A DNA stretch of 64,000 bases. Source: Kiritimatiellia bacterium. Its GTDB lineage: Bacteria > Verrucomicrobiota > Kiritimatiellia > CAIVKH01. Positions 5,843 to 62,409 of this stretch are shown here, in pieces (position 1 is the stretch's first letter; each line of letters begins with the position of its first letter). The stretch lies in the NCBI GenBank assembly GCA_023953695.1, contig JAMLJG010000003.1, positions 106,885-170,884 of the forward strand, written 5' to 3'. The position numbers were made by a program, and so were the translations under genes. Below the pieces are notes generated by a model. That model saw nothing but the letters and a program-made list of their open reading frames with translations. It did no database searches and was not told where the DNA came from.

Positions 5843-6730
5843 ATGCAGGTTCTGCTCGACCAGTTTCTCGACTACATCACCCTTGAAAAAGGGCTCACCT
5901 CAAACACCCGTTCCGCCTATGCCTCGGATCTCGTGCGGTTCCTCGCCTTTATTCAGCGCGCGGGCGTGGCCTTGCTCAACAAACTAACGCGACGCCACAT
6001 TCTCGACTATCTGATGTGGGAAAAGGAGCAAGGACTTGCCGCGCCATCTCTTTCGCGCCGCCTCGTTGCGATTCGTGTCTTCCTTCGCTATTTGCAACAA
6101 GAAGGCATGCTCAGCGCCAATGTCACCGAGACCATGGATTCGCCCAAGCTCTGGAAGCTCCTGCCCGCCACGCTGACTACCGCCGAAGTCGAGCGGCTTC
6201 TGCAAACACCACGCCTCGATAAACCCCTCGGCCTCCGCAACCGCGCCCTACTTGAAACGCTCTACGGAACTGGCCTCCGCGTCTCAGAACTCGCCTCCCT
6301 GAAATTGGAAGATATCCAGTTCGATGCCGGCTATCTGCGCTGCCTCGGCAAGGGGCGAAAGGAGCGCGTTGTCCCACTCGGCGGAGCCGCAGCAACCTAT
6401 CTAAAGAAGTATTTGAATGAAGCGCGCGCTCAACTCGATCGCGTCAAGCAATCCGAGTTTGTTTTTCTTTCCACGCGCGGCCAAGCGCTGAGCCGCAAAA
6501 CCATCTGGCAACTCATCCGCCGATGCACGCGAGAAGCCGGAATCACGAAGAATGTGTCACCGCACACCCTTCGCCACTCCTTCGCCAGCCACCTGCTTGC
6601 GAACAATGCGCCGCTCCGCGTCATTCAGGAAATGCTCGGCCATGCCGACATCGCCACCACGCAAATCTACACCCATGTGGACGCCCCTCGTCTTCAGCAA
6701 ATCCACCGCCAATACCATCCCCGCGCATGA
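5843..6730 (+). CDS. Tyrosine site-specific recombinase, XerC/XerD family
   Basis: N-terminal SAM-like domain (TLEKGLTSNTRSAYASDL) and a C-terminal catalytic region (LRHSFASHLL...LGHADIATTQIYTHV). Confidence 0.85.
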   Translation: MQVLLDQFLDYITLEKGLTSNTRSAYASDLVRFLAFIQRAGVALLNKLTRRHILDYLMWEKEQGLAAPSLSRRLVAIRVFLRYLQQEGMLSANVTETMDSPKLWKLLPATLTTAEVERLLQTPRLDKPLGLRNRALLETLYGTGLRVSELASLKLEDIQFDAGYLRCLGKGRKERVVPLGGAAATYLKKYLNEARAQLDRVKQSEFVFLSTRGQALSRKTIWQLIRRCTREAGITKNVSPHTLRHSFASHLLANNAPLRVIQEMLGHADIATTQIYTHVDAPRLQQIHRQYHPRA

Positions 6731-7428
6731 TCCTCCGCAGTCCATATCGAGCGCTTGAAACAGCGCTGGGCTACAAATTCCGCCGCCGCCACTGGCTCGA
6801 ACAAGCCCTCACCCACCCCTCCTACTCCCACGAACACGCCGACGATATCCCCGACAACCAGCGCCTCGAGTTCCTGGGCGATGCCGCGCTCGGGCTCGTC
6901 ACCGCCGCCGTCCTCTACGAGGCGAACCCCGACCTCGCAGAAGGCGAGCTCACCAAAATGCGCAGCCTGCTGAGCAGCACCAAAGCTCTCGCACAAATGG
7001 CGCAGGAAGTCGGACTCGGTCCCTTCTTGCGGCTCGGTCACGGCGAAGAAATCAGCGGCGGCCGCGAACGCGCCTCGATCCTGGCCGATGCTCTCGAAGC
7101 CGTAATCGGAGCGGCCTATCAAGATGGCGCCCTGAAAGCGGTCTCTCGAATCTTCAAGAAGGTCTTCGTCCCTCACATTCCCACCGCCGAAGAAGGCGCA
7201 ACCATGGAGAATCCCAAGGGCCTCTTGCAAGAACATGCCCAGCGATCCGGCAATGGCATACCTCGTTACATTATTACAAAAGAAGAAGGCCCCGCCCATC
7301 AGAAGACCTTCACCATCGAAGTCTATATTAAAGACGAACTCTTAGGTGTCGGCACCGGAAGCACAAAGCGCGAGGCTCAAGTGCAAGCCGCCCTTCATGC
7401 GCTAAAGAAGTTTACAGAGCGCCAATAA
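6727..7428 (+). CDS. rnc: Ribonuclease III
   Basis: Starts at ATG 6727, overlapping the xer stop as ATGA. Has the ERLEFLGDA RNase III signature and a C-terminal dsRBD (STKREAQVQAALHALKKF). Confidence 0.9.
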   Translation: MILRSPYRALETALGYKFRRRHWLEQALTHPSYSHEHADDIPDNQRLEFLGDAALGLVTAAVLYEANPDLAEGELTKMRSLLSSTKALAQMAQEVGLGPFLRLGHGEEISGGRERASILADALEAVIGAAYQDGALKAVSRIFKKVFVPHIPTAEEGATMENPKGLLQEHAQRSGNGIPRYIITKEEGPAHQKTFTIEVYIKDELLGVGTGSTKREAQVQAALHALKKFTERQ

Positions 7429-7542
7429 TTATATTGGCAACATCCCCATCTTCCAGAAGGCCTGAAATCAAATCCTATTGCGCACCCGCAAGAGAACAGT
7501 AGACTCATCTCACTGTTCTTAAGAACATGGAAAAGGAGAACT

Positions 7543-7950
7543 ATGCCAAAGAATAAGTCAAATCTAACTCTCGCAGAACTACTCAACGCGCTGAATCGTC
7601 ATCGCAAGAAGCTTCCCGCCCTTCACAAAAAGGCGGACGCACTTCGCAAGAAACTGGCGGCAGTCGAAGCGGAAATCGCGGCCCTCGGCGGCATCCCTTC
7701 CTCCGGCGCGAAACGCCGCGCGCCAGCCGGATCGAGACGCCCACGCAACAAAACCAATCTGGGCGACGCCATCGTAGCGGTCCTCTCCAAAGACAAGCCG
7801 CTCTCCATTGCGGAGATCATTGCTGCCGTCAAAATGAATGGCTACTCGACCACCTCGGATAACTTCAGCACCATCGTCTACCAAGCCATCGCGCGCGAGA
7901 AGAGGCGCATCGCGAAGGCCAGCCGCGGACTTTATGTCCTCAAAAGCTGA
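7543..7950 (+). CDS. Hypothetical small basic protein, coiled-coil N-terminus plus putative winged-helix C-terminal domain (possible DNA-binding protein)
   Basis: Strong RBS GGAAAAGGAGAACT-ATG. Lys/Arg-rich sequence with a heptad-like N-terminus and an LGDAIVAVL...IAEIIAAV...YQAIARE segment. Confidence 0.5.
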   Translation: MPKNKSNLTLAELLNALNRHRKKLPALHKKADALRKKLAAVEAEIAALGGIPSSGAKRRAPAGSRRPRNKTNLGDAIVAVLSKDKPLSIAEIIAAVKMNGYSTTSDNFSTIVYQAIAREKRRIAKASRGLYVLKS

Positions 7951-8014
7951 AAAATTGATCGCGTTCTCTTGACTTACCGGAGGGGTTGGTTATCTTCGCC
8001 CCTGCCTTAAAGGT

Positions 8015-8089
8015 TCCGGCGTAGCTCAATGGTAGAGCAGGGCGCTGTTAACGCCAAGGTTGTAGGTTCGAGCCCTACCGCCGGAGCCA
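8015..8089 (+). tRNA. tRNA-Asn (anticodon GTT)
   Basis: Cloverleaf by hand. Acceptor TCCGGCG/CGCCGGA, D-arm GCTCAATGGTAGAGC, anticodon loop CTGTTAA, T-arm GTAGGTTCGAGCCCTAC and a 3' GCCA end. Confidence 0.85.
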
Positions 8090-8275
8090 TTTCCTTGGGC
8101 ATCCCCTTCCCCTTCTCGTCAATTGCCCCGCACTCCGCCCTGCATGCGGATGGCTCCATTCCGCCGGAGATGGGGAGAAAATCATGCCGGGCCGCATGAT
8201 CCTCTGCGCTAACCGATTGACCCGATCCACGCATCGCGCTACTCTCCGCCTCTTTCCGCTTAAAGGATAACCGAC

Positions 8276-10042
8276 ATGACGATGTTGATTTCAAAGTTCC
8301 ACAAGCTGATCCAGTCAAAGCTGTTGTGGGCCGCATTTTTGGTGGTGGTCATTTTCTCTTTCGTGATCTGGGGCACTGCGGTCCCCAACAGCGACAAGAA
8401 TGAATATGGAAACTCGCCCGGCATCCTCGATGGGAAGCCGGTTCCGTTCGAGGAGTTTCATCGCGCCTATTCCAGCACCCTTCTCTCGATAGAAATGTCT
8501 CTTGGCCGCGCCATCAATGTGACGCCCGAAATCGAGACGCAGCTTCGCGCCGCTGCCTGGCAGCGCGTTGCCACCCTGCGCTCGGCAGCGCGCATGGGCA
8601 TCGCGGCCAGCGATGACGAAGTGATCGGCGCGATCCAACATCACGAGGCCTTCCGCTATGAGGGCCAGTTCAACCGAATCGTCTATAAATCATTCGTCCA
8701 GAACTACCTCGGCCGCTACGGCTTTAGCGAACGCCACTTTGAAGAGCACGTGCGCGACGAAATTGTCATCCAGAAGGTACGCTCGATCGTGGAGCGCACT
8801 CAGCTCATCACACCCTTGGAGCTTCAGCGCGCGTTCAATCTCACTACCGACCGTTTCACAGCGGACTACGCGCTGCTCGAACCTGCCCTCGTAGAATCGT
8901 CCGTTAAGCTATCAGACGCGGATGTGCGCGCGTTTTTTGACAAGGACCCAGCGGCCTTCACTCTCCCAGAGCAGCTCCAGGTGGATTTTGTCCGAGTTGC
9001 CACGCAGCCCTTCCTTGCCAGCGCCGAAATCACCGATGACGAGGTGCAGGCCTATTACGATGAAAATCTGCGCGATTTCATTGATCACAGCTCCACCACC
9101 AACGCCGCTCAAGACGCGACCAATTTGCTCGAGAACCTCACGCGCTATCGCCCTCTTGAAGATGTAAAAGAGGAAATCTCCACGATTCTTCGCACAGGCA
9201 AGGCGCTCGAAAGCGCACAGGATGCGGCGATGAACTTGGTCGTCGCGCTGACGCCCGACCGCGACGGCAACGCCCCGACCTTCGAAGCCGCAGCGAAGGA
9301 GGCCAAGCTCGCTATTGAGTCCCTTCCCCCATTCTCGGCAACCAGTGACTTGCCCGGCATCCAGGAACCTGCCGCATTCAAGTTCACTGCGTTCGAACTC
9401 GGCGAAGGACCGGAATCCTATTTCAGCAATCCCGTTCGCGGAACGAACGAGGTCTATGTGATTGCGCTGCGCAAACGCATCGAATCGCGCGTTCCCGAGT
9501 TTGCCGAGGTGGAACCGGCCGTCAAAGAGGCAGCCCTCGCGCAAGCTCAGCACGACGCGCTCAAGGAAAAGGCGGAGCAGATCAAGAGCGAGGCCGAGAA
9601 AGCGCTGGGCGAGAATATCTCCTTCGCCGACACCCTCGCCTTCTATGGCCTCAAAGTGAAGACCACGGAACCCTTCTCTGCCACAACCGGCATGCTGGAC
9701 ACCAACGCTCCTTCACGCGCGATCTTCGCCGCCGTCTCCACCCTCAACGCCAACGAAGTGGCCGACCCGCTTCTGCTGGAAGACGGATATCTGCTTGTTC
9801 ACCTCAAGAACCGCGAGCCGGCAGAGTCCACCACCCTCGCCTCCATCCGGCCGCAACTGCTCGAAACCATTCGCCGCCAATCCGGGCGCCTCAGTTTCGA
9901 TAGCTGGCAGAGCGACCAATTGAAGCAGGCCCACTTCAAAGATCTGCGCCCAGCCACCAGCAGCGAGGACTACGACGAAGTCGAAGAAGAGAGCGGCGAG
10001 ACCCAGGACGACGCACCCGTCGAAAATCCAAGCGCCAGCTAA
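8276..10042 (+). CDS. Periplasmic folding chaperone, PpiD-like (N-terminal membrane anchor, SurA-N-like domain)
   Basis: An N-terminal TM helix (LLWAAFLVVVIFSFVIWG) followed by a large periplasmic domain with the PpiD/SurA-type organisation. Confidence 0.55.
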   Translation: MTMLISKFHKLIQSKLLWAAFLVVVIFSFVIWGTAVPNSDKNEYGNSPGILDGKPVPFEEFHRAYSSTLLSIEMSLGRAINVTPEIETQLRAAAWQRVATLRSAARMGIAASDDEVIGAIQHHEAFRYEGQFNRIVYKSFVQNYLGRYGFSERHFEEHVRDEIVIQKVRSIVERTQLITPLELQRAFNLTTDRFTADYALLEPALVESSVKLSDADVRAFFDKDPAAFTLPEQLQVDFVRVATQPFLASAEITDDEVQAYYDENLRDFIDHSSTTNAAQDATNLLENLTRYRPLEDVKEEISTILRTGKALESAQDAAMNLVVALTPDRDGNAPTFEAAAKEAKLAIESLPPFSATSDLPGIQEPAAFKFTAFELGEGPESYFSNPVRGTNEVYVIALRKRIESRVPEFAEVEPAVKEAALAQAQHDALKEKAEQIKSEAEKALGENISFADTLAFYGLKVKTTEPFSATTGMLDTNAPSRAIFAAVSTLNANEVADPLLLEDGYLLVHLKNREPAESTTLASIRPQLLETIRRQSGRLSFDSWQSDQLKQAHFKDLRPATSSEDYDEVEEESGETQDDAPVENPSAS

Positions 10043-10067
10043 TTTTTGCGACTCTTGCCCGCCTTTT

Positions 10068-10106
10068 CAGCGCGCCCACCCCGGTTGGCGCGCTGAATTG
10101 TTTAAT
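10068..10106 (+). terminator. Candidate rho-independent terminator after the ppiD-like gene
   Basis: Nine-bp GC-rich stem CAGCGCGCC/GGCGCGCTG with a 10-nt loop, followed by the T-rich tract AATTGTTTAATCTT. Confidence 0.45.
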
Positions 10107-10107
10107 C

Positions 10108-10154
10108 TTCCAATCCTTGGAAGCCCCAACCCACTCGTTTTCCAATCCTTGGAA
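10108..10154. promoter_or_regulatory. Two copies of the perfect palindrome TTCCAATCCTTGGAA (10108-10122 and 10140-10154), 32 bp centre-to-centre, upstream of the BMC operon
   Basis: Read directly from the sequence. The same dyad (TTCCAATCGTTGGAA) recurs twice with identical spacing at 19524-19570. Confidence 0.5.
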
Positions 10155-10383
10155 GTTGCCGCTGGCGAATCGTCCGATCGCACGGCGCAGCCTCTCAGTT
10201 CTGCGCCCATTGGCGGACCGGAGGGAGAAATGCCGACTTCGCGACTGAAACCGCCCCATTCTCAAAGCGCAAAAACAGGCTGGAATAGACAATTTTCACC
10301 GCAATGCGGTTCTCTTTAAGGAAAATAGTTGCAACGCGGCAATGCACCGTGCAGACTGATTGCGGATTTGTGCGCAACTCAGA

Positions 10384-11640
10384 ATGAAGCATCCTTTGAA
10401 AATAGCGATCGGCTCCGACCACGGCGGATTCGAACTCAAACAGCAACTTATTCCTTATCTCACGAGCCTTGGCCACGCCGTCACGGACGTGGGAACCAAC
10501 AGCAAGGACGCCGTTGATTATCCCCGTTTTGCATACGCCGTGGCGTCCAGCGTGTCGAGCGGCAGAGCCGATGTAGGAATTGTGATTGATGGCGCGGGGA
10601 TTGGATCGGCCATGACGGCCAACAAGGTTCCCGGCGTTCTAGCTGCCGCCTGCTACAACGAAGCGCTGGCCAGGAACTCGCGCGAGCACAACAACGCCAA
10701 CGTCTTGACTTTGGGCAGCGGTCAAATTGACCTTGCCGCTGCGAAACAGATTGCTTACATTTTCTTAACGACCGAGTGCACGGCGGACCGCCACTTGGCG
10801 CGCGTTAAGCTGATAAAGGAAGTAGAAGGCCGATCTATGTCTGGAAATGATTTGTCGCCGGAAGATGTGCAACGGGTAGCAGAGCGAGTGAAGCAGCTCT
10901 TGGGAGGGAAAAGCGGCTCCAGCGCCGCCATAGCGCGCCCCCTTTCGGCTGAACAAGTGGCAAAAATGATTGACCACACCCTGTTGAAGGCCGAAGCGAC
11001 GCCTGCCGATGTGGAAAAGCTCTGTGCGGAGGCCAGGAAACACGGATTTTGGTCGGTCTGCGTCAACTCCGCCTATGTCAAACAGGCCAAGGCGCTGCTC
11101 CGCGACTCCCGCACCAAGGTTTGCGCCGTTGTGGGCTTCCCTCTCGGCGCCATGGAGCCGCAGATCAAATCCCTCGAAACACGCAAGGCGCTGCGCGACG
11201 GCGCGAACGAGATTGACATGGTCATCAACATCGGCGCGCTCAAAGCGCGGGATGATGCCACGGTGCTGCGCGATATTCGCGGCGTAGTGGAAAACTGCAA
11301 GGACAGCCGCGCGATTTGCAAAGTGATTTTGGAGACCTCCCTCCTGAACGACGAAGAAAAGACCCGCGCCTGCCAGTTGAGCATGAAGGCGGGCGCCGAT
11401 TTTGTGAAGACCTCGACGGGATTTTCGACGGGCGGCGCCACGGCGGAAGACATTGCGCTGATGGCGCGCACGGTTGCTTCCCGCAAGTTGGGCGTGAAGG
11501 CTTCTGGGGGCGTTCGGACATACGCGGATATTGTGAAGATGGTCAATGCGGGCGCCACGCGCGTCGGGTGTTCGAATAGTGTGAAAATCATGGAAGAGAT
11601 CAGCACCGGCGTCGCACAGTCCGGTGGCAAGGGATATTGA
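10384..11640 (+). CDS. Fusion protein: ribose-5-phosphate isomerase B (RpiB/LacAB family) joined to deoxyribose-5-phosphate aldolase (DeoC)
   Basis: The N-terminal half matches RpiB ([19 protein letters not shown]...). The C-terminal half matches DeoC ([11 protein letters not shown]...VCVNSAYV...[11 protein letters not shown]...VKTSTGF...[10 protein letters not shown]). The track start at 10360 is TTG; the ATG at 10384 fits the RpiB N-terminus. Confidence 0.85.
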
Positions 11641-11669
11641 ACAGTTCGGGTTAACTGAAGGAGAAGGTC

Positions 11670-12305
11670 ATGGCGGAACTACGGTGCTATGCGTTTATTG
11701 ATAGCTTGCAGCCACAATTTGCCTCGTTTTTGGGAACGGTGGCACAGGGGTTTCTCCCCACAACTCACCAGGCGGCGCTTTTTGTTGAAATCGCGCCCGG
11801 TATGGAGATCAACCGCGTAACGGATGTGGCGCTGAAGGCCACCAATGTGACGCCGGGCATGATGATCGTCGAGCGCTTGTACGGCATGCTCGAGATCCAC
11901 TCGCACTCGCAAGCGGACGTCCGTCAGGCGGGCCAGGCGATTCTCGACGCGCTTGAACTCAAAGAGGATGATCGCATTAAGCCCAAACTGCTGACGAGTC
12001 AGGTGATCCGAAACGTGTCGGACTATCACACGCAGCTCGTCAACCGCATGCGCCATGGCAATATGTTGCTGCCGGGCCACTCGCTCTATGTGATGGAGTG
12101 TGCGCCTGCGGGCTATGCCGCGATTGCCGCCAATGAGGCGGAAAAGGCGGCCAACATCAACATTCTCGAAGTTCGAGCCGTCGGCAGCTTCGGGCGCATT
12201 TATCTCGGTGGCGAAGAGCGCGACGTTGATGTCGGGTATCGCGCAGCCGAAAAGGCCTTGGAGGTCATTTCGGGTCGCGAGGAAAAATCGGGCCGAGGCG
12301 GTTAA
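11670..12305 (+). CDS. BMC shell protein, tandem BMC-domain type (BMC-T), divergent
   Basis: Two BMC-domain-like halves: VTDVALKATNVTPGMMIVERLYGMLEIHSHSQADVRQAGQA and AAIAANEAEKAANINILEVRAVGSFGRIYLGGEERDVDVGYRAAEKA. The RBS is GAAGGAGAAGG. Confidence 0.7.
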   Translation: MAELRCYAFIDSLQPQFASFLGTVAQGFLPTTHQAALFVEIAPGMEINRVTDVALKATNVTPGMMIVERLYGMLEIHSHSQADVRQAGQAILDALELKEDDRIKPKLLTSQVIRNVSDYHTQLVNRMRHGNMLLPGHSLYVMECAPAGYAAIAANEAEKAANINILEVRAVGSFGRIYLGGEERDVDVGYRAAEKALEVISGREEKSGRGG

Positions 12306-12347
12306 TCAACAACAACTCGTTAGCGAACAGAAAAGGGAGATACGCAC

Positions 12348-12647
12348 ATGGCAGAAGCACTAGGCATGATTGAGACGCGGTCATTTCCGGCCGTGGTGGA
12401 AGCGGCGGATGCGGCGGTAAAGGCCGCCAAGGTCGAGCTGGTTTCGTTCGAAAAGACCGGCGGCGGCTACGTCTCCGTTATTATTCGCGGTGATGTCGCA
12501 GCGGTAAAAGCGGCTTGTGACGCAGCGCAAGTTGCCGGCGGTCGCGTCGGTGAAGTTGTGGCTGTCCACGTCATTGCCCGCCCCCACAGCAATGTGGATG
12601 CGGTCTTGCCGTTGGGTCGCCAGGGCGAATCGAAAGCGAAGAAATAA
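12348..12647 (+). CDS. BMC shell hexamer protein (BMC-H, PduA/CcmK/EutM-like)
   Basis: [29 protein letters not shown]...[23 protein letters not shown] is the canonical Pfam00936-type sequence. The RBS is AAGGGAG. Confidence 0.92.
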
Positions 12648-12663
12648 GGCAATTGCGCGATCC

Positions 12664-12688
12664 AATTGCCAGTCGCGCACTGGCAATT
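12664..12688 (+). other. Perfect 10-bp inverted repeat hairpin (AATTGCCAGT-cgcgc-ACTGGCAATT) in the BMC-H/BMC-P intergenic space
   Basis: Read directly. It lies 17 nt after the BMC-H stop codon and 24 nt before the BMC-P start. Confidence 0.6.
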
Positions 12689-12711
12689 TCATCTAGCAAT
12701 TAGCAGATTTC

Positions 12712-13026
12712 ATGCAGCTCGCCCGCATAGTTGGATCGGTCGTCGCCACACGAAAAGAGCCCACGCTGAATGGGCTCCGATTGATGCTGGTTCGACCCTT
12801 GGACGACGCGGGCCGCGAGACGGGATCTGTGCTTGTCGCCGCCGATGCGGTTGGAGCCGGTGTGGAGGAAGTTGTCCTCATCGCCTCCGGCAGCTCGGCG
12901 CGGCAGACGCAGCAGACTGACAAGCGGCCGGTGGACGCCGTGATCATGGCCATCGTGGATTCCTGGGACGTGAACGGCGAAGAGAAATATCGAAAAAGTA
13001 AAGAAGTGAAGGTCGCGGAAGAATAG
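12712..13026 (+). CDS. BMC vertex pentamer protein (BMC-P, EutN/CcmL/PduN family), copy 1
   Basis: [30 protein letters not shown]...[11 protein letters not shown] is a typical EutN/PduN N-terminus. Confidence 0.85.
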
Positions 13027-13114
13027 TGATGTCGAATTGCACGCGATGCACGCGAATCAGCGTGCGCTCGTGTTGAACGATCATCCCCCGCGGCCTTCGA
13101 GTGGAGGCTAGTAC

Positions 13115-14557
13115 ATGGCACGTCTCACGGATGCCGATATTGACGCGATCGCGCGCAGAATTGTCGCGGATTTGGATCAGCGCCCTCTCGAGAGCGTCCC
13201 CGCTCCCGCCGCTGTTGCATCGGCGGACCGCGAGTTGGGCATCTTCCCCACGGTGGATGAAGCCGTCAAAGCGGCGCGCGAGGCACAGCCTGTTTTTGTG
13301 GCGCTTCCGCTCAAGAAGCGAGCGCAGATCATTGCCGCGATTCGATCGGTCATGCTGGAGAACGCGGCGATCCTCGCGAAGGCCGCTCACGAGGAGACCG
13401 GGCTGGGTCGCTTCGAAGACAAGATCACAAAGAATATTCTCGTCACCGAGAAGACGCCCGGCATTGAACACCTGACTCCGGAAGCCATCACGGGTGATCA
13501 CGGGTTGACGCTCATTGAACCCGCCCCCTTTGGCGTCATTGGCGCGATTACGCCCACCACAAACCCGACATCAACGATCATTTGCAACACGATTGGAATG
13601 ATTGCCGCAGGCAACACAGTTGTCTTCAACGTACATCCGGGCGCAAAGAATTGCTCCATGCAGACCGTGGCCTTGATCAACAAGACTATTGTTGCCAGTG
13701 GCGGGCCGCGGAACGTGGTCACATGTATTTCCAACCCCACCATCGAAAGCGCGGGGGCCTTGATGCACCACGCTCATATTCGCCTCGTGGTGGTCACCGG
13801 TGGCGGTGGCGTCGTGAAGGCGGCGATGAAGAGCGGGAAGCGTGCCATTTGTGCAGGCCCCGGCAACCCGCCCGTCGTGGTGGATGAAACCGCCGACATC
13901 GCCAAGGCGGGTCGCGATATCGTGCTCGGCGCCTCGACAGACAACAACATTATTTGCGCTGATGAAAAGCAGGTCTTCGTCGTGGATAAAGTCGCGGATG
14001 ATCTGCTGAAGTCCATGCAGCAAAACAATGCGGTGCTGGTGGATCGCAGCAAGCTGGCGGCTTTGGAAAAGGTCATCTTCACCGAGATGCACGGGCCGCG
14101 GCAGGAGGCGCACATCAATCGCGACCTGATCGGAAAGAATGCCGAGGTGATCCTGAGCAAGATCGGGATCAATGTGCCGAGTTCCTGTCGGTTGGGAATC
14201 GTCGAAGTGGATGAAAACCATCCCCTGCTATGGACGGAGCAAATGATGCCCATTCTCCCCGTCTGCCGCGTCTCGAGCTGCGATTATGCAATTGATCTCG
14301 CGCTCAAGACCGAAGGTGGCAATCGGCACACAGCGGTAATGCACTCCAAGAACCTTGATAAACTCCATCGCATGGCGAAGGAGTCGAACTGCAGTATTTT
14401 TGTAAAGAACGGGCGCTCGCAAGCGGGCTTGGGCTTGGATGGTGAAGGCTATGTCTCCTTCACAATCGCCAGTCCTACCGGTGAGGGGCTGACAGGCCCG
14501 CGCACATTTTCACGCTGGCGGCGATGCGTGCTCGTTGATCACTTTAGGATCACGTGA
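13115..14557 (+). CDS. CoA-acylating aldehyde dehydrogenase (PduP/EutE-like BMC signature enzyme)
   Basis: FGVIGAITPTTNPTSTIICNTIGMIAAGN...ICAGPGNPPVVVD matches the catalytic-Cys region of acylating AldDH. The N-terminal segment MARLTDADIDAIARRIVADL is an amphipathic helix followed by a Pro/Ala linker, which is encapsulation-peptide-like. Confidence 0.9.
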   Translation: MARLTDADIDAIARRIVADLDQRPLESVPAPAAVASADRELGIFPTVDEAVKAAREAQPVFVALPLKKRAQIIAAIRSVMLENAAILAKAAHEETGLGRFEDKITKNILVTEKTPGIEHLTPEAITGDHGLTLIEPAPFGVIGAITPTTNPTSTIICNTIGMIAAGNTVVFNVHPGAKNCSMQTVALINKTIVASGGPRNVVTCISNPTIESAGALMHHAHIRLVVVTGGGGVVKAAMKSGKRAICAGPGNPPVVVDETADIAKAGRDIVLGASTDNNIICADEKQVFVVDKVADDLLKSMQQNNAVLVDRSKLAALEKVIFTEMHGPRQEAHINRDLIGKNAEVILSKIGINVPSSCRLGIVEVDENHPLLWTEQMMPILPVCRVSSCDYAIDLALKTEGGNRHTAVMHSKNLDKLHRMAKESNCSIFVKNGRSQAGLGLDGEGYVSFTIASPTGEGLTGPRTFSRWRRCVLVDHFRIT

Positions 14558-15168
14558 TGAAGAAATACCCGGCCATGGCCGTGGTTGAATTTGGGGAAAT
14601 CGGGAAGGGAATGTTCGCCACGGATAAGATGTTGAAGAAAGCGCCCATCGCTTTCATCCGTTGCGGGACGATCAGTCGCGGCCGCTATCTCACGGCCATC
14701 GGCGGCAGCACGGCGTCCGTTGGAGAGTCGTTTGATGAAGGTCTCTTTTGGGGTGGAGATGCAGTGCTGGACTCGGTCCTCCTCGCTGACGTGCACCCGC
14801 AAGTTCACGATGCAATTCTCGGGCAACATCGCCCGCAAGGGCGCGGTGCGCTGGCAATCGTAGAAACGCAAACTGTCGCGTGCAATGTGCGCGCCGCTGA
14901 GTTGGCGCTGAAAGGGACGCCGGTCAATCTCATGGAACTGCGATTGGCCGATGCCGGCTTGTCCGGGAAGGGCCTCAGCATCTATGAAGGTGAATTGTAC
15001 GACATCGAAGCCGCGATGGACATTGTCAGCGGGTTCTTGGAGGCGGCGGGGAAGGAGTTGAATTATCAAATCATCTCCTCGCCTCACGAAGCATTGGACA
15101 CGCGGATCACCTCGCACAGTCTTTTCGGTACGGCTCGCATGATCGAACTGGAAGGAGAATCCGGCTAA
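14557..15168 (+). CDS. BMC shell protein, tandem-domain BMC-T, PduT-like
   Basis: Aligns by eye along its full length with PduT (…GKGMFATDKMLKKAPIAFIR-C-GTISRGRYLTAIGG… / …LDSVLLADVHPQVHDAI… / …ALAIVETQTVACNVRAAELALKGTPVNL…). A Cys lies near the PduT Fe-S ligand position. The start ATG 14557 overlaps the AldDH stop as TGATG. Confidence 0.85.
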   Translation: MKKYPAMAVVEFGEIGKGMFATDKMLKKAPIAFIRCGTISRGRYLTAIGGSTASVGESFDEGLFWGGDAVLDSVLLADVHPQVHDAILGQHRPQGRGALAIVETQTVACNVRAAELALKGTPVNLMELRLADAGLSGKGLSIYEGELYDIEAAMDIVSGFLEAAGKELNYQIISSPHEALDTRITSHSLFGTARMIELEGESG

Positions 15169-15443
15169 TGCTACTCGGTCGCGTCACAGGCACGGTGGTC
15201 GCTACGATTGTGTACGAAGGCATGAGCGGTGTCCCCCTGCTCCTCGTTCAGCCACTCGACAAAACTGGGCAGCCCAAAGGCAAGGTCCTGGTTGCGGCTG
15301 ACGCCACGCGCATGGCAGGTGTGGGCGAGCTGATCTACTACGAAGGCGGTCGGGAAGCCGCGATGGCGCTCGATCCTTGGTTTGTTCCCGTGGATCACGC
15401 CATCATCGGAATCGTGGATAATTTGAACACTCAGGAATCGTAA
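15168..15443 (+). CDS. BMC vertex pentamer protein (BMC-P), copy 2
   Basis: MLLGRVTGTVVATIVYEGMSGVPLLLVQPL...VLVAADATRMAGVGE. TAATG overlap with the upstream gene. Confidence 0.85.
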   Translation: MLLGRVTGTVVATIVYEGMSGVPLLLVQPLDKTGQPKGKVLVAADATRMAGVGELIYYEGGREAAMALDPWFVPVDHAIIGIVDNLNTQES

Positions 15444-15445
15444 GC

Positions 15446-15727
15446 ATGTTCACCGGACGCGTCATCGGCCATATAGATTCGACCATCAACCATCCGTGGT
15501 ATGACGCGAAGAAGCTGCTCGTCGTCGAAAAAACAGATGCATCTGGAAAAGCAGCCTCCGACTACGTGATTGCAGTGGACACGGTTGGCGCAGGCGTAGG
15601 CGAGCCCGTGCTGGTCCTCGATGAAGGAAATGGCGCACGCCAAATTGTTGCCTCAAGTGACGCGCCCGTTCGCTCCGTAATCGTCGGGATCATAGACGAA
15701 ATTCATTGCCCGAATTCGGGTTCCTGA
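15446..15727 (+). CDS. BMC vertex pentamer protein (BMC-P), copy 3
   Basis: MFTGRVIGHIDSTINHPWYDAKKLLVVEKTD...VIAVDTVGAGVGE. Confidence 0.85.
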   Translation: MFTGRVIGHIDSTINHPWYDAKKLLVVEKTDASGKAASDYVIAVDTVGAGVGEPVLVLDEGNGARQIVASSDAPVRSVIVGIIDEIHCPNSGS

Positions 15728-15740
15728 CTAGACTCGCTTT

Positions 15741-16916
15741 ATGCGTGTATTCCTTATCGTCCTTGATTCCGTCGGGATAGGACACGCGCCAGATGCCGCT
15801 GATTACGGCGACGAAGGTGCGGCCACCCTACCCCACATCGCAGAGGCCGTCGGTGGTTTGCACCTGCCGACTTTTCAGAAACTGGGACTGGGCAATATCC
15901 CGCCCGTAACGCCGCGCCCGTTTCCCATTGATGGCGTTGCTCCCGCCGAAAAACCCTTGGCAAGCTATGGCGCCATGCGCGAGATGTCACAGGGCAAAGA
16001 CACGGTCACCGGACACTGGGAAATAGCGGGCTTGTTGTTGCAGCCGGGGTTTCACTTGTTCCCTCCGGGTCCGCCGTCATTTCCGCCCGAGGTGGTTGCT
16101 GCATTTGAGAAGGAAACCGGTCGCAAGATATTGGGTAACAAGGCCGCCAGCGGCGTTCCGATCATGGAGGAACTCGGCGAGCAGTCTTCGCGCGAGGGCA
16201 AGTGGATCGTCTACACGAGCGCGGACTCCGTCTTTCAGATCGCGGCCAACATTGATTTGATTCCTCTGGAGGAACTCTATCGCGCGTGCGAAGTGGCGCG
16301 AAGGCTGTGCGATCCGCTTCGAGTGGGCCGAGTCATTGCGCGACCCTTCCGAGGATCGGCCGGCGCCTATCAGCGCACAGAAGATCGCCGCGACTACGCA
16401 TTTCAACCGGATGAGCCGACAATTCTCGAGCGCCTCCATTCATCGGGCGTTCCCGTGTATGCCGTCGGCAAGATCGAGGACATCTTCGCGCATCGCGGAA
16501 TTACGAAAACCGATCACACAGGCAATAACCACACTTCGCAAAAAGCGGTCGAACGCTTCGCAGCCGAGATGAAGCGGGGCTTCCTGTTCGCGAACTTCAT
16601 TGATTTCGACATGCTCTACGGTCACCGGCGCGACCCCAAGGGCTATGCAGAGTCTTTGGTTCAAACCGATCAGTGGCTGGCCTCATTTTTGCCAACGCTG
16701 AAGTCGAGCGATACGCTCATCATTACCGCCGATCACGGCAACGATCCCACTTACAAGGGAACGGATCATACCCGCGAGGTGGTCCCCCTGCTGGTTTATC
16801 AACCCGGACAAGTGGCACAGAATCTGGGGTTGCGAGAGGGTTACTACGACATCGCACAATCGGTCGCCTCGCAATTCGGAATAGATTCACTCCCGCGAGG
16901 TCAATCTTTTCTCTAA
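15741..16916 (+). CDS. deoB: Phosphopentomutase
   Basis: Collinear with E. coli DeoB: VLDSVGIGHAPDAADYGDEGAATLPHIAE...TGHWEIAGL...YTSADSVFQIAA...GRVIARPF...ITADHGNDPT..GTDHTRE. Confidence 0.9.
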   Translation: MRVFLIVLDSVGIGHAPDAADYGDEGAATLPHIAEAVGGLHLPTFQKLGLGNIPPVTPRPFPIDGVAPAEKPLASYGAMREMSQGKDTVTGHWEIAGLLLQPGFHLFPPGPPSFPPEVVAAFEKETGRKILGNKAASGVPIMEELGEQSSREGKWIVYTSADSVFQIAANIDLIPLEELYRACEVARRLCDPLRVGRVIARPFRGSAGAYQRTEDRRDYAFQPDEPTILERLHSSGVPVYAVGKIEDIFAHRGITKTDHTGNNHTSQKAVERFAAEMKRGFLFANFIDFDMLYGHRRDPKGYAESLVQTDQWLASFLPTLKSSDTLIITADHGNDPTYKGTDHTREVVPLLVYQPGQVAQNLGLREGYYDIAQSVASQFGIDSLPRGQSFL

Positions 16917-16940
16917 ACGCTAATAGAAAGAGGTGTCCAG

Positions 16941-18263
16941 ATGCTTCCTCAATGGATAATCGAAAAGAAACGCGATGGGCAAACGCTTACGGAAGAGGAG
17001 ATTCGCTTCTTCATTGACGCCTACGCGAAAGAAAAGTTGCCCGATTATCAGATGGCGGCTATGGCCATGGCGATCTTCATTCGCGGCATGAATCCGAAGG
17101 AAATTGCGATTCTTACCGATGCCATGATGCGGTCGGGCGACCTGATCAATACCTCCTCCATCAAGAAACCCAAGGTGGACAAGCACTCGACCGGCGGGAT
17201 TGGCGACAAGGTCTCGCTCATTCTGGCCCCCCTTGTTGCCGCGTGCGGGTTGGCGGTGCCGATGATTTCCGGGCGCGGCCTCGGCATCACCGGCGGCACG
17301 TTGGACAAACTCGAGTCCATTCCCGGCTATCGCACCAATTTGAGTGATGCGGAGCTGATCCGGGTAATCAAGAAAATCGGCTGTTCCATCATCGGTCAGA
17401 CCAAACAACTCGCACCGGCCGATAAGAAACTCTACGCGCTCCGCGATGTCACGGGGACCGTCGCTTCTATTCCCCTGATCACGGCCAGCATCATGTGCAA
17501 GAAGCTCGCAGAAGGCCTTGATGGACTGCTTCTCGATGTGAAGTGCGGCAAGGGTGCGTTCATGCGCACGCAAAAAGATGCGCGCGCACTCGCGCTGACC
17601 ATGGTGCGTGTGGGAAATGCCATGGGCAAGCGCATGGCTGCGGTAATAACCGATATGAACCAAACATTGGGCAACACAGCGGGCAACGTCCTTGAAGTCG
17701 TGGAGTCCATTGAAACCCTGCAAAACCGGGGACCGAAGGATCTCACGGAACTCACCCTCGTTTCCGCTGAAGAAATGCTGATCCTGGGGCGAATCACCAA
17801 GTCGCGCGCCACCGCGCGCGCCATGGCAGAAAAGGCGCTCGCAGACGGATCGGCATTCAGGATATTCCGCAAAATGGTGGAGCTGCAAGGGGGCGACGTC
17901 CGCACCATTGACGATCCCTCGCGCTTGGCACAGGCCAAATTCAAAGTTCCGATGCCCGCTCCAGCATCCGGGTTTGTCTCGCTCGCGGATGCGGAATCCG
18001 TCGGCAAAGCTTGCGTAGTCTTGGGCGCTGGGCGCACACGCACGGACGAAGCAGTAGATCCTGCCGTAGGTATATCGCATATCCTGCACATCGGCGATGC
18101 CGTCACCAAAGGCGCTCCGCTCTTGGTGATTCATGCGAACGACAAGAAGCGATTGGCGGCTGCTCAAGAACTCTTGAAAGGCGCCTTCAAGATAGCGAAG
18201 TCCAAGCCGAAGACACCGAAGCTGATTTTGGAACGTATCAACGGCGAAACGATTGGGAAATAA
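16941..18263 (+). CDS. deoA: Thymidine/pyrimidine-nucleoside phosphorylase
   Basis: The KHSTGGIGDKVSL signature, with the N-terminal helical domain and alpha/beta domain typical of DeoA/Pdp. Confidence 0.9.
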   Translation: MLPQWIIEKKRDGQTLTEEEIRFFIDAYAKEKLPDYQMAAMAMAIFIRGMNPKEIAILTDAMMRSGDLINTSSIKKPKVDKHSTGGIGDKVSLILAPLVAACGLAVPMISGRGLGITGGTLDKLESIPGYRTNLSDAELIRVIKKIGCSIIGQTKQLAPADKKLYALRDVTGTVASIPLITASIMCKKLAEGLDGLLLDVKCGKGAFMRTQKDARALALTMVRVGNAMGKRMAAVITDMNQTLGNTAGNVLEVVESIETLQNRGPKDLTELTLVSAEEMLILGRITKSRATARAMAEKALADGSAFRIFRKMVELQGGDVRTIDDPSRLAQAKFKVPMPAPASGFVSLADAESVGKACVVLGAGRTRTDEAVDPAVGISHILHIGDAVTKGAPLLVIHANDKKRLAAAQELLKGAFKIAKSKPKTPKLILERINGETIGK

Positions 18264-18265
18264 TC

Positions 18266-19102
18266 ATGATAGACCGCACAATTCTCGACCAGGCGCTCTC
18301 CCACGTTCGCGGAAAGTGGCCCCATGCCCGCCCACGCCTTGGCATGATTCTCGGTTCCGGATGGAGCGAGGTCATTGGCTCTTTCAACGTCAAGGACGCG
18401 ATTTCCTACGAGGATATTCCGGGCCTGGGCAAGACCGGAGTCGTGGGTCACGCAGGTCGCCTCGTACTCGCGGAATCGGCTGGATTGGAGTTGCTCGTCT
18501 TTCAGGGGCGACGCCACTTCTACGAAGGCGTGGGTTGGACTCCCATTGCGCTCCCGATCTTTCTTCTTAAATCGCTCGGCGCCAAGACACTCCTCGTGAC
18601 CAATGCCGCAGGCGGGGTTAGGAAAGACCTCGTTCCGGGGACACTGATGATCATTTCCGATCACATCAACTTTCTCGGAGCCAACCCGCTGGTCGGCGCA
18701 CACGACAGTTTTTGGGGGCCGCGATTCCCGGATCAGAGCGAAGTGTACAACGCGTCGCTTCGCAAATTGATTGTCCAAGCAGGACAGAACGCGGGCGAGA
18801 CGCTTGCCGAAGGCGTCTATCTGGCGGACTCGGGGCCGACCTACGAATCGCCCGCTGAAATACGCGCGTTTGCCGCGCTTGGAGCTGACGCCGTTGGAAT
18901 GTCCACCGTTCCCGAAGCCCTGCTGGCCAATGCTGCGGGCTTGCGCGTGGCAGGACTCTCCTGCATCACGAATAGCGCGGCTGGCATTAGCGAGAATCCG
19001 CTCAGTCACGAGGAAGTGACCGAGACCACTCGTCTTGCAATGGAGCGCATGAAGAAGGTGCTTCTCAACTTTGTCGAGGAGGTGGCTCGTGAGCGCCGCT
19101 AA
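18266..19102 (+). CDS. Purine nucleoside phosphorylase (PNP/MTAP family, PunA-type)
   Basis: The start is the internal ATG 18266 (MIDRTILDQ...). Family motifs: GSGWSE, TNAAGG, GADAVGMSTVPE. Confidence 0.85.
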   Translation: MIDRTILDQALSHVRGKWPHARPRLGMILGSGWSEVIGSFNVKDAISYEDIPGLGKTGVVGHAGRLVLAESAGLELLVFQGRRHFYEGVGWTPIALPIFLLKSLGAKTLLVTNAAGGVRKDLVPGTLMIISDHINFLGANPLVGAHDSFWGPRFPDQSEVYNASLRKLIVQAGQNAGETLAEGVYLADSGPTYESPAEIRAFAALGADAVGMSTVPEALLANAAGLRVAGLSCITNSAAGISENPLSHEEVTETTRLAMERMKKVLLNFVEEVARERR

Positions 19103-19508
19103 ATCCGCTCTCCCGCGCAGTCAGGCGTTGAAACTTCTCCGCGCCGCCGCCCAGGTATCGCGCAACGCACACGCGCCCTACTCTGCGTTTCAGGTGGGTG
19201 CGGCCCTGTTGACGGATACGGGCGCAGTCATCTCGGGTTGCAATGTCGAGAATGCCTCATACGGACTCACCATTTGCGCCGAGCGCAACGCGATTTTTCA
19301 TGCGGTCGCTGTGAAGAAGCGAAAGTTCAAGGCGGTGGCCATCGTTGCGAGCGGAAAGCAAATGCCTTTCCCGTGCGGCGCCTGCCGTCAGGTCCTCGCC
19401 GAATTCGGATCGCCGGAGATGGTGGTCCTCGTCGCGCCGCGCGCAAAGTTGGCCGATTATATGGAGCTAACGCTCGGCGAACTCCTGCCCCATTCCTTCA
19501 AGTTTTGA
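19071..19508 (+). CDS. cdd: Cytidine deaminase
   Basis: CAERNAI...PCGACRQ zinc-ligand motifs. The start is either ATG 19071 (overlapping the PNP 3' end) or GTG 19089. Confidence 0.85.
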   Translation: MSRRWLVSAAKSALPRSQALKLLRAAAQVSRNAHAPYSAFQVGAALLTDTGAVISGCNVENASYGLTICAERNAIFHAVAVKKRKFKAVAIVASGKQMPFPCGACRQVLAEFGSPEMVVLVAPRAKLADYMELTLGELLPHSFKF

Positions 19509-19523
19509 TCCCGCGCAGGCAAC

Positions 19524-19570
19524 TTCCAATCGTTGGAAAGCCCTCGCGATAGAACTTCCAATCGTTGGAA
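19524..19570. promoter_or_regulatory. Two copies of the perfect palindrome TTCCAATCGTTGGAA (19524-19538 and 19556-19570), 32 bp apart, in the convergent gap between cdd and gspF
   Basis: Read directly. Same dyad arms and same 32-bp spacing as the pair at 10108-10154. Confidence 0.5.
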
Positions 19571-19571
19571 A

Positions 19572-20768
19572 TTAGCGGGCGAGTTGGTTGAGCGAGAGGA
19601 TGGGCTGCAGAATGGCGAGGGCCACGAGAAGCACTACGGCGCCGACTGCGACAATTAGAATGGGCTCGACGAGTCGAATAAAGCGCTGGAGAAGTGTCTC
19701 CCATTGTTCTTGGAACCGACGCGCCGCCTGATCGAGAAGCCCCGTCAAATCGCCACTCGCCTCGCCCGCTCGGTACCACGCGGGTAGCCGGGTTCCGATC
19801 CACGGACTCTCCGCCAAGACATCCGGAACAGAGCGCCCTTGGCGAACGGCTTCGCTGCCTTGCTGCATCTGGCTGGCGAGCCACTCGCTCCCACTCGCGC
19901 GTGCGGCGAGCGGCAAGGCTTCCACGAGTGCAATCCCGCCGCGCAGCAGCATGACAAGCGTGCGCACAAACCGAATGGTCACCACGAGGCAATAGCCGCG
20001 GCGAAAGAGAGGTATCCGATTGAAATGTCGCTCCCAATATGCGCGTCGGGTGGATCGCCTCAAACGAAACGCGACCCACACGCAAAAAAGGATCATGAAT
20101 GCAATCGCGAGGCTGGCTGGCAAACGCCCTGCCCCGCCGAACCAGATGAGCACTTTTGTGGTCGTGGGCAGTGCCACGCCCGATTCTGCAAAGAGTCCGG
20201 CCAATCGCGGCAAAATCGCAGTGACCATAATAACTGCAACGATAAAGGCCAGCGCGATGACCAATAGTGGATAGAGAAGCGCTGAGAGAATCCCTTCGCG
20301 AAGGCGCGTCTCTTCTTCCAAATAGCTCGCCATCTGATTGAACATTTCGCCCAGTTGCCCCGTGCGCTGACCGCCCTGCAGAAGCGCCACCTCGAATGGG
20401 CTGGTTTCTGGGGCGAGCTGTGGCAACGCTTCGGCAACGCTCTCACCCTCCCGAATTCGATCGCGCAGGCCGGCAAGGATTCCGTTGAGCTGCGAATCGG
20501 GGTGCGCCTCCAACAAGAGATCCAGAGCGGCTACGGCAGGGACTCCCGCGCGCAGCAACGCGCCGAGTTCGCGATAGAGCGCGGCTCTTCTTTCTGTTGA
20601 AAAGCGGCGGCGAACCAAGCTGCTCCGGTCCGATGCGGCGACAACGTCTTCGGCCAAAATGCCGCGCGCAGCAAGTTTCTCTCTCGCTTCTTTTGGATGA
20701 AGGGCCTCGACCATACCCCGGGCGCGCCCGCCCAATTTGTCAAACCCTCGATACGCAAAGGTCTTCAT
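19572..20768 (-). CDS. gspF: Type II secretion system inner-membrane platform protein GspF (PilC family)
   Basis: GspF/PilC-family repeats, 398 aa, with TM segments (LLYPLLVIALAFIVAVIMV). Confidence 0.85.
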   Translation of the reverse strand: MKTFAYRGFDKLGGRARGMVEALHPKEAREKLAARGILAEDVVAASDRSSLVRRRFSTERRAALYRELGALLRAGVPAVAALDLLLEAHPDSQLNGILAGLRDRIREGESVAEALPQLAPETSPFEVALLQGGQRTGQLGEMFNQMASYLEEETRLREGILSALLYPLLVIALAFIVAVIMVTAILPRLAGLFAESGVALPTTTKVLIWFGGAGRLPASLAIAFMILFCVWVAFRLRRSTRRAYWERHFNRIPLFRRGYCLVVTIRFVRTLVMLLRGGIALVEALPLAARASGSEWLASQMQQGSEAVRQGRSVPDVLAESPWIGTRLPAWYRAGEASGDLTGLLDQAARRFQEQWETLLQRFIRLVEPILIVAVGAVVLLVALAILQPILSLNQLAR

Positions 20769-34946: not shown

Positions 34947-34960
34947 CAAGTCGGTGATCG

Positions 34961-35485
34961 TCACGACTTCCCTCGCGATTCGGATTCGGCATCCTCCAAA
35001 CGCTTCCGGCACTCGTTGATGCGGTCGCGAAGGGTGGCTGCCTCCTCGAACTTCTCAGCTGCAATAGCCTTATCCATTTTTCTCTGCAACGCAGATAGCT
35101 CCGCGCCCACTGTCACACGCGCGCCCTCGCGCTTGGGAATCTTGCCCGTATGCTGATCCGAGCGATGCATGGCCTTCAGCAAGGGCGGAAGCTCTTCTGC
35201 AAAGGCCTCGTAGCATGAGGCGCAGCCGAATCGTCCGGTCTTCTTAAAATCCGTCCTCCGCATGTGGCAACGCGGGCAGGCCCGTTCCACTTCTGGCTCC
35301 TCTTTCGATTTGCCCATGCCCATGCCCAACAAAAGGTCGGTCATGGAGAGCGGTTCCTTCGCATCAAAGCCTTGTTTCGCGGCACAGCCCTCGCACAGGT
35401 GCAGTTTTTTCACTGCACCATCAGCCACCTGGGTGAGGTGGACCGTCGCTTCACGCTCCTTGCAGGACTCGCACAACATGGCCAC
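34961..35485 (-). CDS. mcsA: McsA-like protein (Cys4 zinc-finger pairs plus UVR motif)
   Basis: CESC...CEGC and CPRC...CASC pairs, then a UVR-like EEAATLRDRI. Sits immediately upstream of mcsB. Confidence 0.65.
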   Translation of the reverse strand: MAMLCESCKEREATVHLTQVADGAVKKLHLCEGCAAKQGFDAKEPLSMTDLLLGMGMGKSKEEPEVERACPRCHMRRTDFKKTGRFGCASCYEAFAEELPPLLKAMHRSDQHTGKIPKREGARVTVGAELSALQRKMDKAIAAEKFEEAATLRDRINECRKRLEDAESESRGKS

Positions 35486-62322: not shown

Positions 62323-62409
62323 AAAGTCACTCCTTCACAATATCCTGCAACTTGAAACCAGCCTAATTCCCTCAATCCAAACAAAACCAATACACACCGT
62401 CTATTTCCC

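Follow-up and report, generated by a model that had tools for sequence, protein, structure and literature searches.

Sugar phosphate utilisation (SPU) metabolosomes are a group of bacterial microcompartments (BMCs) defined by a deoxyribose-phosphate aldolase (DERA, pfam01791), an RpiB-type protein (pfam02502) and an aldehyde dehydrogenase (AldDh) (PMC8217296; PMC11585597). In subtype 3 (SPU3), the enzymes are AldDh together with the pfam01791 and pfam02502 proteins, which are fused in some loci with pfam02502 in the N-terminal position; an encapsulation peptide (EP) is located at the N-terminus of AldDh, and an EP-like sequence lies between the fused domains (PMC8217296, Supplementary Data 2). 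A Verrucomicrobia SPU3 locus was confirmed to encode the RpiB-DERA fusion (Dwyer et al. 2024, PMC11585597). The SPU3 shell comprises one hexamer protein (BMC-H), a triplet of pentamer proteins (BMC-P) of the green, grey and orange clades, and two tandem-domain trimer proteins (BMC-T), namely a CcmP-like double-stacking permuted one (Tdp) and a single-layer one (Ts) found without PduS or a pore cysteine (PMC8217296). SPU3 hosts are Verrucomicrobia, Lentisphaerae, Planctomycetes, Acidobacteria and others, and satellite loci are uncommon (PMC8217296, Supplementary Data 2). We analysed a stretch of 64,000 nucleotides, hereafter the window, from the Kiritimatiellia metagenome-assembled genome (MAG) GCA_023953695.1 (contig JAMLJG010000003.1, positions 106,885 to 170,884 of the forward strand), in which a group of shell genes occupies positions 11670-15727. 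From sequence comparisons, we consider it very probable that the shell genes of this interval are a complete and standard set for a metabolosome of the SPU3 type.

The interval encodes six shell proteins (Table 1) and also holds the aldehyde dehydrogenase gene (13115-14557), which is cargo and not shell. A preliminary description of the window had counted one BMC-H, two BMC-T and three BMC-P, and these counts were borne out across ~80 kb by Pfam, phmmer and the gene calls of the flanks. When all six-frame segments of the 64 kb were searched by phmmer, no BMC or EutN domain was found beyond the six shell proteins. Likewise, no shell gene was present among the genes called over ~10 kb past the right end and ~6.5 kb past the left end; the preliminary description had allowed for more BMC-H genes just outside the window, and there are none in these ~16 kb of extra flank. 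The two BMC-T are indeed distinct, one being a double-stacking permuted Tdp and the other a single-layer Ts, and the C-terminal tail that had been quoted for BMC-H is present in 12348-12647. For Ts, the public gene calls start at ATG 14557 (203 aa), while the open reading frame (ORF) listing extends to GTG 14554 (204 aa). Identical copies of the window proteins were found on contig JAGFJQ010000018.1 of another MAG, GCA_024102575.1. With regard to the published SPU3 definition, the window encodes a DERA carrying an N-terminal RpiB fusion, an AldDh with an N-terminal helix, one BMC-H, a CcmP-like Tdp and a Ts lacking a pore cysteine, with no PduS alongside. As for the triplet, three divergent BMC-P paralogues (P1, P2 and P3) are present, and P1 is orthologous to the green-clade pentamers that bear the label 'viridian3' in the available catalogue entries.

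We then looked for relatives of the locus by scanning one genome per species with AldDh homologues that had been aligned; of more than 556 matches, the best 80 loci, all from distinct species, were kept. The inventory was counted over the 49 loci with enough flank to be complete. The taxa represented were Kiritimatiellia, Verrucomicrobiota, Lentisphaerae, Planctomycetota, Acidobacteriota, Marinimicrobia, Calditrichaceae, Zixibacteria, Ignavibacteria, Sumerlaeota and Alphaproteobacteria. We observed exactly one H, one Ts, one Tdp, P1, P2 and P3 in 46 of the 49 complete loci, with the gene order of the window in 41, and a profile search detected no second BMC-H or other extra BMC/EutN ORF within 10 kb on either side in the 80 loci. 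The RpiB-DERA fusion was found in 59 of the 80. Two of the loci correspond to catalogue entries, L057 being BWX54 and L012 being A2Y78; in the catalogue entries available, both are labelled SPU3, with Ts 'fern', Tdp 'lightLightGreen ccmPlike' and P 'viridian3'. Protein by protein, they are 46-86% identical to the window, AldDh reaching 68% (L057) and 74% (L012). The claim that the shell inventory is unusual was therefore not sustained, since the published SPU3 shell description matches it item for item and the same set is found in nearly all of the complete related loci. The locus is of an already catalogued type with an ordinary inventory, and SPU3 is not specific to the Planctomycetes-Verrucomicrobia-Chlamydiae (PVC) group. 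The remaining three of the 49 complete loci depart from this set. The Ignavibacteria locus L085 (2055-3438) has two tandem Tdp genes. The locus L064 from a sheep-rumen Kiritimatiellae (6723-9473) is split: it retains AldDh-Ts-P3-P2 alone, and H, Tdp and P1 are either lost or located elsewhere. In the Verrucomicrobiae locus L072 (12347-12668), P2 is found as two overlapping ORFs, probably because of a frameshift.

The shell proteins were also compared one by one with solved structures and curated families. The best PDB matches of Tdp were CcmP (5lsr/4ht5, E 2e-77 over residues 2-209) and HO-5816 of Haliangium ochraceum (HO) (5v74, E 4e-72), and its score with the NCBIfam CcmP model was 318 bits, under the cut-off of 340. 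Its identity to the catalogued SPU3 Tdp, which bear the 'ccmPlike' label mentioned above, is 75% (BWX54) and 80% (A2Y78). Glu68-Arg69 of Tdp lies in the motif VERLYG, aligned to IERLYG of CcmP; according to the catalogue, the gating residues are universally conserved in BMC-Tdp (PMC8217296). For BMC-H, the best natural PDB match was HO-5815, the BMC-H of H. ochraceum (E 1e-37), with about three quarters of the residues identical. The aligned region extends through the C-terminal ...RPHxNVDAxLPLGR, indicating that the tail of BMC-H is common to the best-studied model hexamer. The motifs KAAK (25-28) and ARPH (77-80) are found in 61 and 63 of 71 orthologues, respectively. Ts best matched the PduT structures (E 4e-27 to 8e-26) and carries a serine where position 38 of the PduT chain 3n79 aligns, so that it has no pore cysteine. 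We take 3n79 to be a C38S mutant, with the wild-type PduT having its [4Fe-4S] cysteine at this position. No PduS-like gene was detected by Pfam scans in the operon or in the other window ORFs of at least 150 aa.

Concerning the pentamers, P1 was closest in the PDB to the HO BMC-P of the 5v74 shell (E 3e-30), and its NCBIfam CcmL score was 106.5 bits, under the cut-off of 125. It is 61% identical to BWX54_01118 and 72% identical to A2Y78_07075, both of which are labelled 'viridian3, P_viridian3_mixed-spu, SPU3 main' in the catalogue entries available. P1 is thus assigned by orthology to the green clade, as far as these entries go. P2 gave a distant best PDB match (2.5e-11 with the single sequence, 1.6e-16 with a profile), and the profile matches of P3 were EutN (2e-20) and MSM0273 (1e-4); for both paralogues, the relatives with solved structures are distant.

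Twelve genes follow one another from 10384 to 19508 in the order RpiB-DERA, Tdp, H, P1, AldDh, Ts, P2, P3, deoB, deoA, purine nucleoside phosphorylase (PNP) and cdd (Table 1). The intergenic gaps are of -1 to 88 nt, deoB starting 13 nt past P3, and such gaps suggest that the genes form a single transcription unit. The gene callers place the start of the fusion at ATG 10384, and the ORF listing offers TTG 10360. In the fusion, an RpiB-like domain (residues 6-148) is followed by an EP-like amphipathic helix (~157-173) and a DERA domain (190-404); the PF02502 match covers residues 15-152 of the ORF shared with the DeoC domain. The DERA domain is well supported (PF01791, E 8e-19; NCBIfam deoC equivalog, 269 bits versus 117; DERA structures, E 4e-73). 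An alignment of 60 sequences, the window and 59 orthologues, showed that the linker motif dLs..D.eRIa.RV.eLl is conserved. In the AldDh homologue alignment, the N-terminus forms a conserved amphipathic helix, MARLTDxDIEAIARRIVADL, followed by ~17 variable residues and then the conserved core. Both cargo proteins are therefore predicted to bear EP-like helices. In the same 60 sequences, Asp69 of the RpiB-like domain (10384-10830) is invariant (60/60), at a position that we take to be the site of the catalytic cysteine in RpiB enzymes. The NCBIfam RpiB equivalog score of the fusion is 134.4, just under the cut-off of 138.65. The aspartate and the low score both fit the report of an SPU RpiB-type isomerase (RPI) in which the active-site cysteine is missing and isomerase activity is slight (Dwyer et al. 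2024, PMC11585597), and the Asp69 variant is predicted to have no such activity.

Table 1. Genes of the candidate SPU3 operon and the palindromes flanking it (positions in the window)
Feature	Positions	Strand	Basis or location
TTCCAATCCTTGGAA palindrome pair, 32 nt apart	10108..10154	.	between ppiD-like gene (stop 10042) and operon
RpiB-DERA fusion, 418 aa, signature cargo enzyme	10384..11640	+	Pfam PF02502 + PF01791
BMC-Tdp, CcmP-like double-stacking permuted tandem-BMC trimer, 211 aa	11670..12305	+	Pfam BMC match; PF27545 CsoS1D_N (precomputed annotation)
BMC-H, the only one, single BMC domain, 99 aa, predicted major facet hexamer	12348..12647	+	PF00936, E 6e-28
BMC-P paralogue 1 (P1), 104 aa, standard vertex pentamer type	12712..13026	+	PF03319 EutN_CcmL, E 3e-31
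Acylating (CoA-dependent) aldehyde dehydrogenase (AldDh), 480 aa, cargo	13115..14557	+	PF00171; NCBIfam PRK15398, 652 bits vs cut-off 403
BMC-Ts, PduT-like single-layer tandem-BMC trimer, 203 aa	14557..15168	+	two BMC stretches (Pfam)
BMC-P paralogue 2 (P2), 91 aa, divergent triplet member	15168..15443	+	PF03319, E 2e-20
BMC-P paralogue 3 (P3), 93 aa, divergent triplet member	15446..15727	+	PF03319, E 7e-24
Phosphopentomutase DeoB, 391 aa	15741..16916	+	NCBIfam equivalog, 501 bits vs cut-off 256
Thymidine/pyrimidine-nucleoside phosphorylase DeoA, 440 aa	16941..18263	+	PF02885, PF00591, PF07831; NCBIfam, 577 vs 269
Purine nucleoside phosphorylase (PNP), 278 aa	18266..19102	+	PF01048; NCBIfam PRK08202, 312 bits vs 218
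Cytidine deaminase (cdd), 126 aa, final operon gene	19128..19508	+	PF00383; NCBIfam, 145 bits vs 74
TTCCAATCGTTGGAA palindrome pair, 32 nt apart	19524..19570	.	directly past cdd stop 19508

The gene content suggests a pathway for deoxynucleosides. Cytidine deaminase, thymidine phosphorylase and purine nucleoside phosphorylase would act in the cytosol and release deoxyribose 1-phosphate, which DeoB would convert to deoxyribose 5-phosphate. Inside the shell, the DERA domain of the fusion would cleave the latter, giving glyceraldehyde 3-phosphate along with acetaldehyde, and the encapsulated acylating AldDh would turn acetaldehyde into acetyl-CoA. The shell would retain acetaldehyde and let sugar phosphates pass. 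From what is known of the families, the single BMC-H would tile the facets, P1 would cap the twelve vertices, and the PduT-like Ts, which is without the Fe-S cysteine, would be a structural or small-pore facet tile. The CcmP-like Tdp may form stacked trimers with a large gated pore that passes bulky phosphorylated metabolites or cofactors, and acetyl-CoA/CoA and NAD(H) would presumably be exchanged through it. Pfam scans of the window ORFs revealed neither a phosphotransacylase (PTAC) nor an alcohol dehydrogenase or PduS; the turnover of CoA and NAD+ therefore probably needs the large pore of Tdp. Exchange by this route was proposed for the SPU types that are without PTAC (Dwyer et al. 2024, PMC11585597). 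Besides the operon, a 5'-nucleotidase-type protein (Metallophos + 5_nucleotid_C) is encoded 28 kb away on the reverse strand (47378-48979) and could feed nucleosides into the pathway.

The presence of deoB, deoA, PNP and cdd in the operon gives genomic-context support to nucleoside-derived deoxyribose 5-phosphate as the substrate, which so far was argued mainly from DERA itself. These genes were adjacent in a minority of the 80 related loci (deoB in 18, deoA in 13, PNP in 11 and cdd in 6), mostly from Kiritimatiellia, Verrucomicrobiota and Lentisphaerae, and the main text of Dwyer et al. 2024 (PMC11585597) makes no mention of them. The locus is also a compact candidate for heterologous reconstruction, with twelve genes in a single operon. 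As a discovery, it matters little, since the shell parts list is the published SPU3 definition and recurs almost unchanged in dozens of species.

The BMC-P triplet was considered in its own right. Pairwise identities are 44% for P1-P2, 35% for P1-P3 and 32% for P2-P3, and each paralogue has orthologues at 46-96% identity across phyla. The median identity to orthologues is 71% for P2 (77 other loci) and 64% for P3, and 64-71% for the three BMC-P together. Identity among orthologues is thus far above that among paralogues, which indicates that the three BMC-P are old paralogues. P2 has the most divergent motifs and yet shows the highest conservation among orthologues of all three, and in at least eight phyla P2 and P3 are each retained as one orthologue. 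A 1-nt overlap joins the stop of AldDh to the start of Ts and, again, the stop of Ts to the start of P2, and P3 begins 2 nt past P2, which suggests that AldDh-Ts-P2-P3 are translationally coupled. Moreover, Ts, P2 and P3 are found together downstream of AldDh in nearly all related loci. One could imagine, although we hold it to be rather unlikely, that P2 and P3 are not redundant vertex caps but serve some other conserved function, for instance linking cargo to shell as adaptors, forming mixed or alternative vertices that set shell size or permeability, or pairing with the Ts tile. If true, such a role would hold for every triplet-bearing BMC type and would be general rather than specific to this locus. 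The function of the extra BMC-P is an open question in the literature (PMC8217296; PMC11585597), and the strict conservation and coupling of AldDh-Ts-P2-P3 sharpen it. The opposite idea, that the locus is a decaying or non-functional relic whose extra BMC-P copies are redundant recent duplicates, deserves almost no credence. Twelve pentamers suffice per shell and three paralogues may look redundant, but all the ORFs are intact and tightly or translationally coupled, the degree of divergence between paralogues with orthologues spread over phyla does not fit recent copies, and the paralogue with the most divergent motifs is the one best conserved among orthologues. Furthermore, P2 and P3 are present in one copy each in 46 of the 49 complete loci; among the three exceptions, only the split locus L064 is without shell genes, and these are H, Tdp and P1, not P2 or P3.

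Several points weigh against the assignment to SPU3 or against the functions that go with it. The biochemistry of SPU enzymes in the literature concerns SPU6 only (PMC11585597). Cofactor recycling is unexplained in the SPU3 reading, and the role of the RpiB domain appears questionable with an aspartate at the position expected for the catalytic cysteine. The grey-clade representative MSM0273 did not discriminate between the pentamers, since its profile scores were 0.44 with P2 and 1e-4 with P3 but 2e-5 with P1, and single-sequence PDB searches with P2 or P3 gave no match to it. A satellite shell gene may also lie beyond the ~80 kb covered. That the inventory is incomplete in this way, with more BMC-H or other genes of the same shell in a locus elsewhere, seems improbable to us. 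Satellite loci are known from many BMC types. Within SPU3, an EutL-type 'EUT module' is present in two genomes and the locus is split in some (PMC8217296), as is the related locus L064, and our search for shell genes spans ~80 kb of the genome. Against this, no other shell gene was found in the 64 kb and ~16 kb of flank, none of the 80 related loci has a second BMC-H within 10 kb on either side, satellites are not common in SPU3 (PMC8217296) and SPU loci tend to occur without other BMC types (PMC11585597).

The preliminary description had proposed instead a shell akin to the Planctomycete and Verrucomicrobial type (PVM), specific to the PVC lineage, in which one H, two T and three P would imply a small or non-canonical geometry. 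We judge this very improbable. Part of the argument stands: the BMC-P triplet was first characterised in PVM (PMC8217296, Supplementary Data 2), and the host is a PVC bacterium, the nearest species representative being a Kiritimatiellia MAG with 96% AldDh identity and the Kiritimatiellia belonging to the PVC group. The pvm locus of Planctopirus limnophila shares with the window its triplet and its PVC host. However, PVM loci have two BMC-H, three BMC-P and a class II aldolase (pfam00596), with no BMC-T in the listed shell set (PMC8217296), and they also have a PTAC and degrade fucose and rhamnose. The window has a single BMC-H, both Ts and Tdp, DERA and RpiB, and neither PF00596 nor pfam06130 matched in the operon or in the other scanned window ORFs of at least 150 aa. 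In addition, the PVM triplet is purple/grey/orange, whereas P1 is orthologous to the green-clade 'viridian3' pentamers of the available catalogue entries. Nor can the triplet serve as a mark of PVC ancestry, since the same locus with an identical inventory is found in many non-PVC phyla such as Acidobacteriota, Marinimicrobia, Ignavibacteria, Alphaproteobacteria and others. As to geometry, recombinant shells made from the closest solved homologues are merely 40 nm across, but nothing points to a non-canonical geometry: H, Tdp and P1 have their nearest solved relatives among the HO tiles, as does Ts at a greater distance. In H. ochraceum, one BMC-H, the Ts/Tdp trimers and one BMC-P form a regular 40 nm icosahedron with 60 hexamers, 20 trimers and 12 pentamers (PMC12090211), so that an inventory with one BMC-H does not imply an odd geometry. 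Finally, the chance of a carboxysome-like, anabolic compartment is close to nil. The best NCBIfam names, CcmP at 318 bits and CcmL at 106.5 bits, are those of beta-carboxysome proteins. In the PDB, CcmP is the nearest match of Tdp, which is homologous to it over the full length and keeps the Glu-Arg pair of ERLYG, and P1 resembles CcmL. Yet neither score reaches its curated cut-off (340 and 125), RuBisCO, carbonic anhydrase and CcmM/N are absent from the Pfam-scanned ORFs of the window, and the operon contains an aldehyde dehydrogenase and DERA, which are metabolosome hallmarks. Unlike the beta-carboxysome, the window has a catabolic context.

Other features of the window were also noted. The palindrome TTCCAA-N3-TTGGAA occurs 4 times in the 64 kb versus 0.02 expected, and all copies flank the operon as two pairs with identical spacing (Table 1). 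For the pair at 19524..19570, the folding energy is -21.2 kcal/mol (z = -2.1). L007, L044 and L064 have comparable arrays of 2-5 copies between genes; those of L044 and L064, like the pairs in the window, lie downstream of the end of a plus-strand ORF. On sequence grounds, the palindromes look like REP-like (repetitive extragenic palindromic) 3'-end hairpins of Kiritimatiellia and Lentisphaerae. An SPU-specific operator was rejected as the main interpretation, as arrays of the motif adjoin unrelated genes in L044 and L064. No riboswitch or other RNA regulator was found upstream of the operon: across the whole window, the matches to Rfam at gathering thresholds were limited to a tRNA (8015-8086). 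Promoter and terminator scans of 9900-19800 gave counts no higher than in shuffles. Further along, on the reverse strand, a ClpC-type AAA+ chaperone gene adjoins that of an ATP:guanido phosphotransferase (31388-35012), an arrangement unrelated to the shell that we take to resemble the McsB-ClpC pairing. A secretin and a TSP3-repeat protein are encoded at 59185-63974, also on the reverse strand, with Amuc_1100-, Amuc_1102- and PilM-like genes just beyond the window (L087, 6720-11050); this Akkermansia-type pilus-associated cluster is consistent with a host of the PVC group.

When the locus is compared with known systems, the HO shell (PDB 5V74 and related entries) ranks first among solved structures for H (HO-5815) and P1 and second for Tdp (HO-5816), and HO T1 (5dih) is a further match, to Ts. 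Like the window, H. ochraceum has one BMC-H, both the Ts and Tdp classes and a BMC-P triplet (PMC8217296; PMC12090211). It differs in that its shells contain three BMC-T (T1, T2 and T3; PMC12090211), while the window encodes one Ts and a single Tdp. In addition, no SPU signature enzymes are reported for the main HO-type locus, pfam01791 being found only at other genomic locations in some of the genomes (PMC8217296), while in the window RpiB-DERA is part of the operon. Other close counterparts are the catalogued SPU3 loci, for example those of Verrucomicrobia bacterium ADurb.Bin018 (BWX54_01116-01122) and Acidobacteria bacterium RBG_13_68_16 (A2Y78_07065-07085). Like the window, they encode RpiB fused N-terminally to DERA and an AldDh with an N-terminal EP or EP-like helix, and they share its six shell genes in the order Tdp-H-P1-AldDh-Ts-P2-P3. 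In the BWX54 locus, Tdp (211 aa) and Ts (204 aa) have the same lengths as in the window, where Ts counts 204 aa from its GTG start. What sets the window apart from SPU3 loci in general is that deoB, deoA, PNP and cdd are appended in the operon, a trait found in a minority of its relatives.

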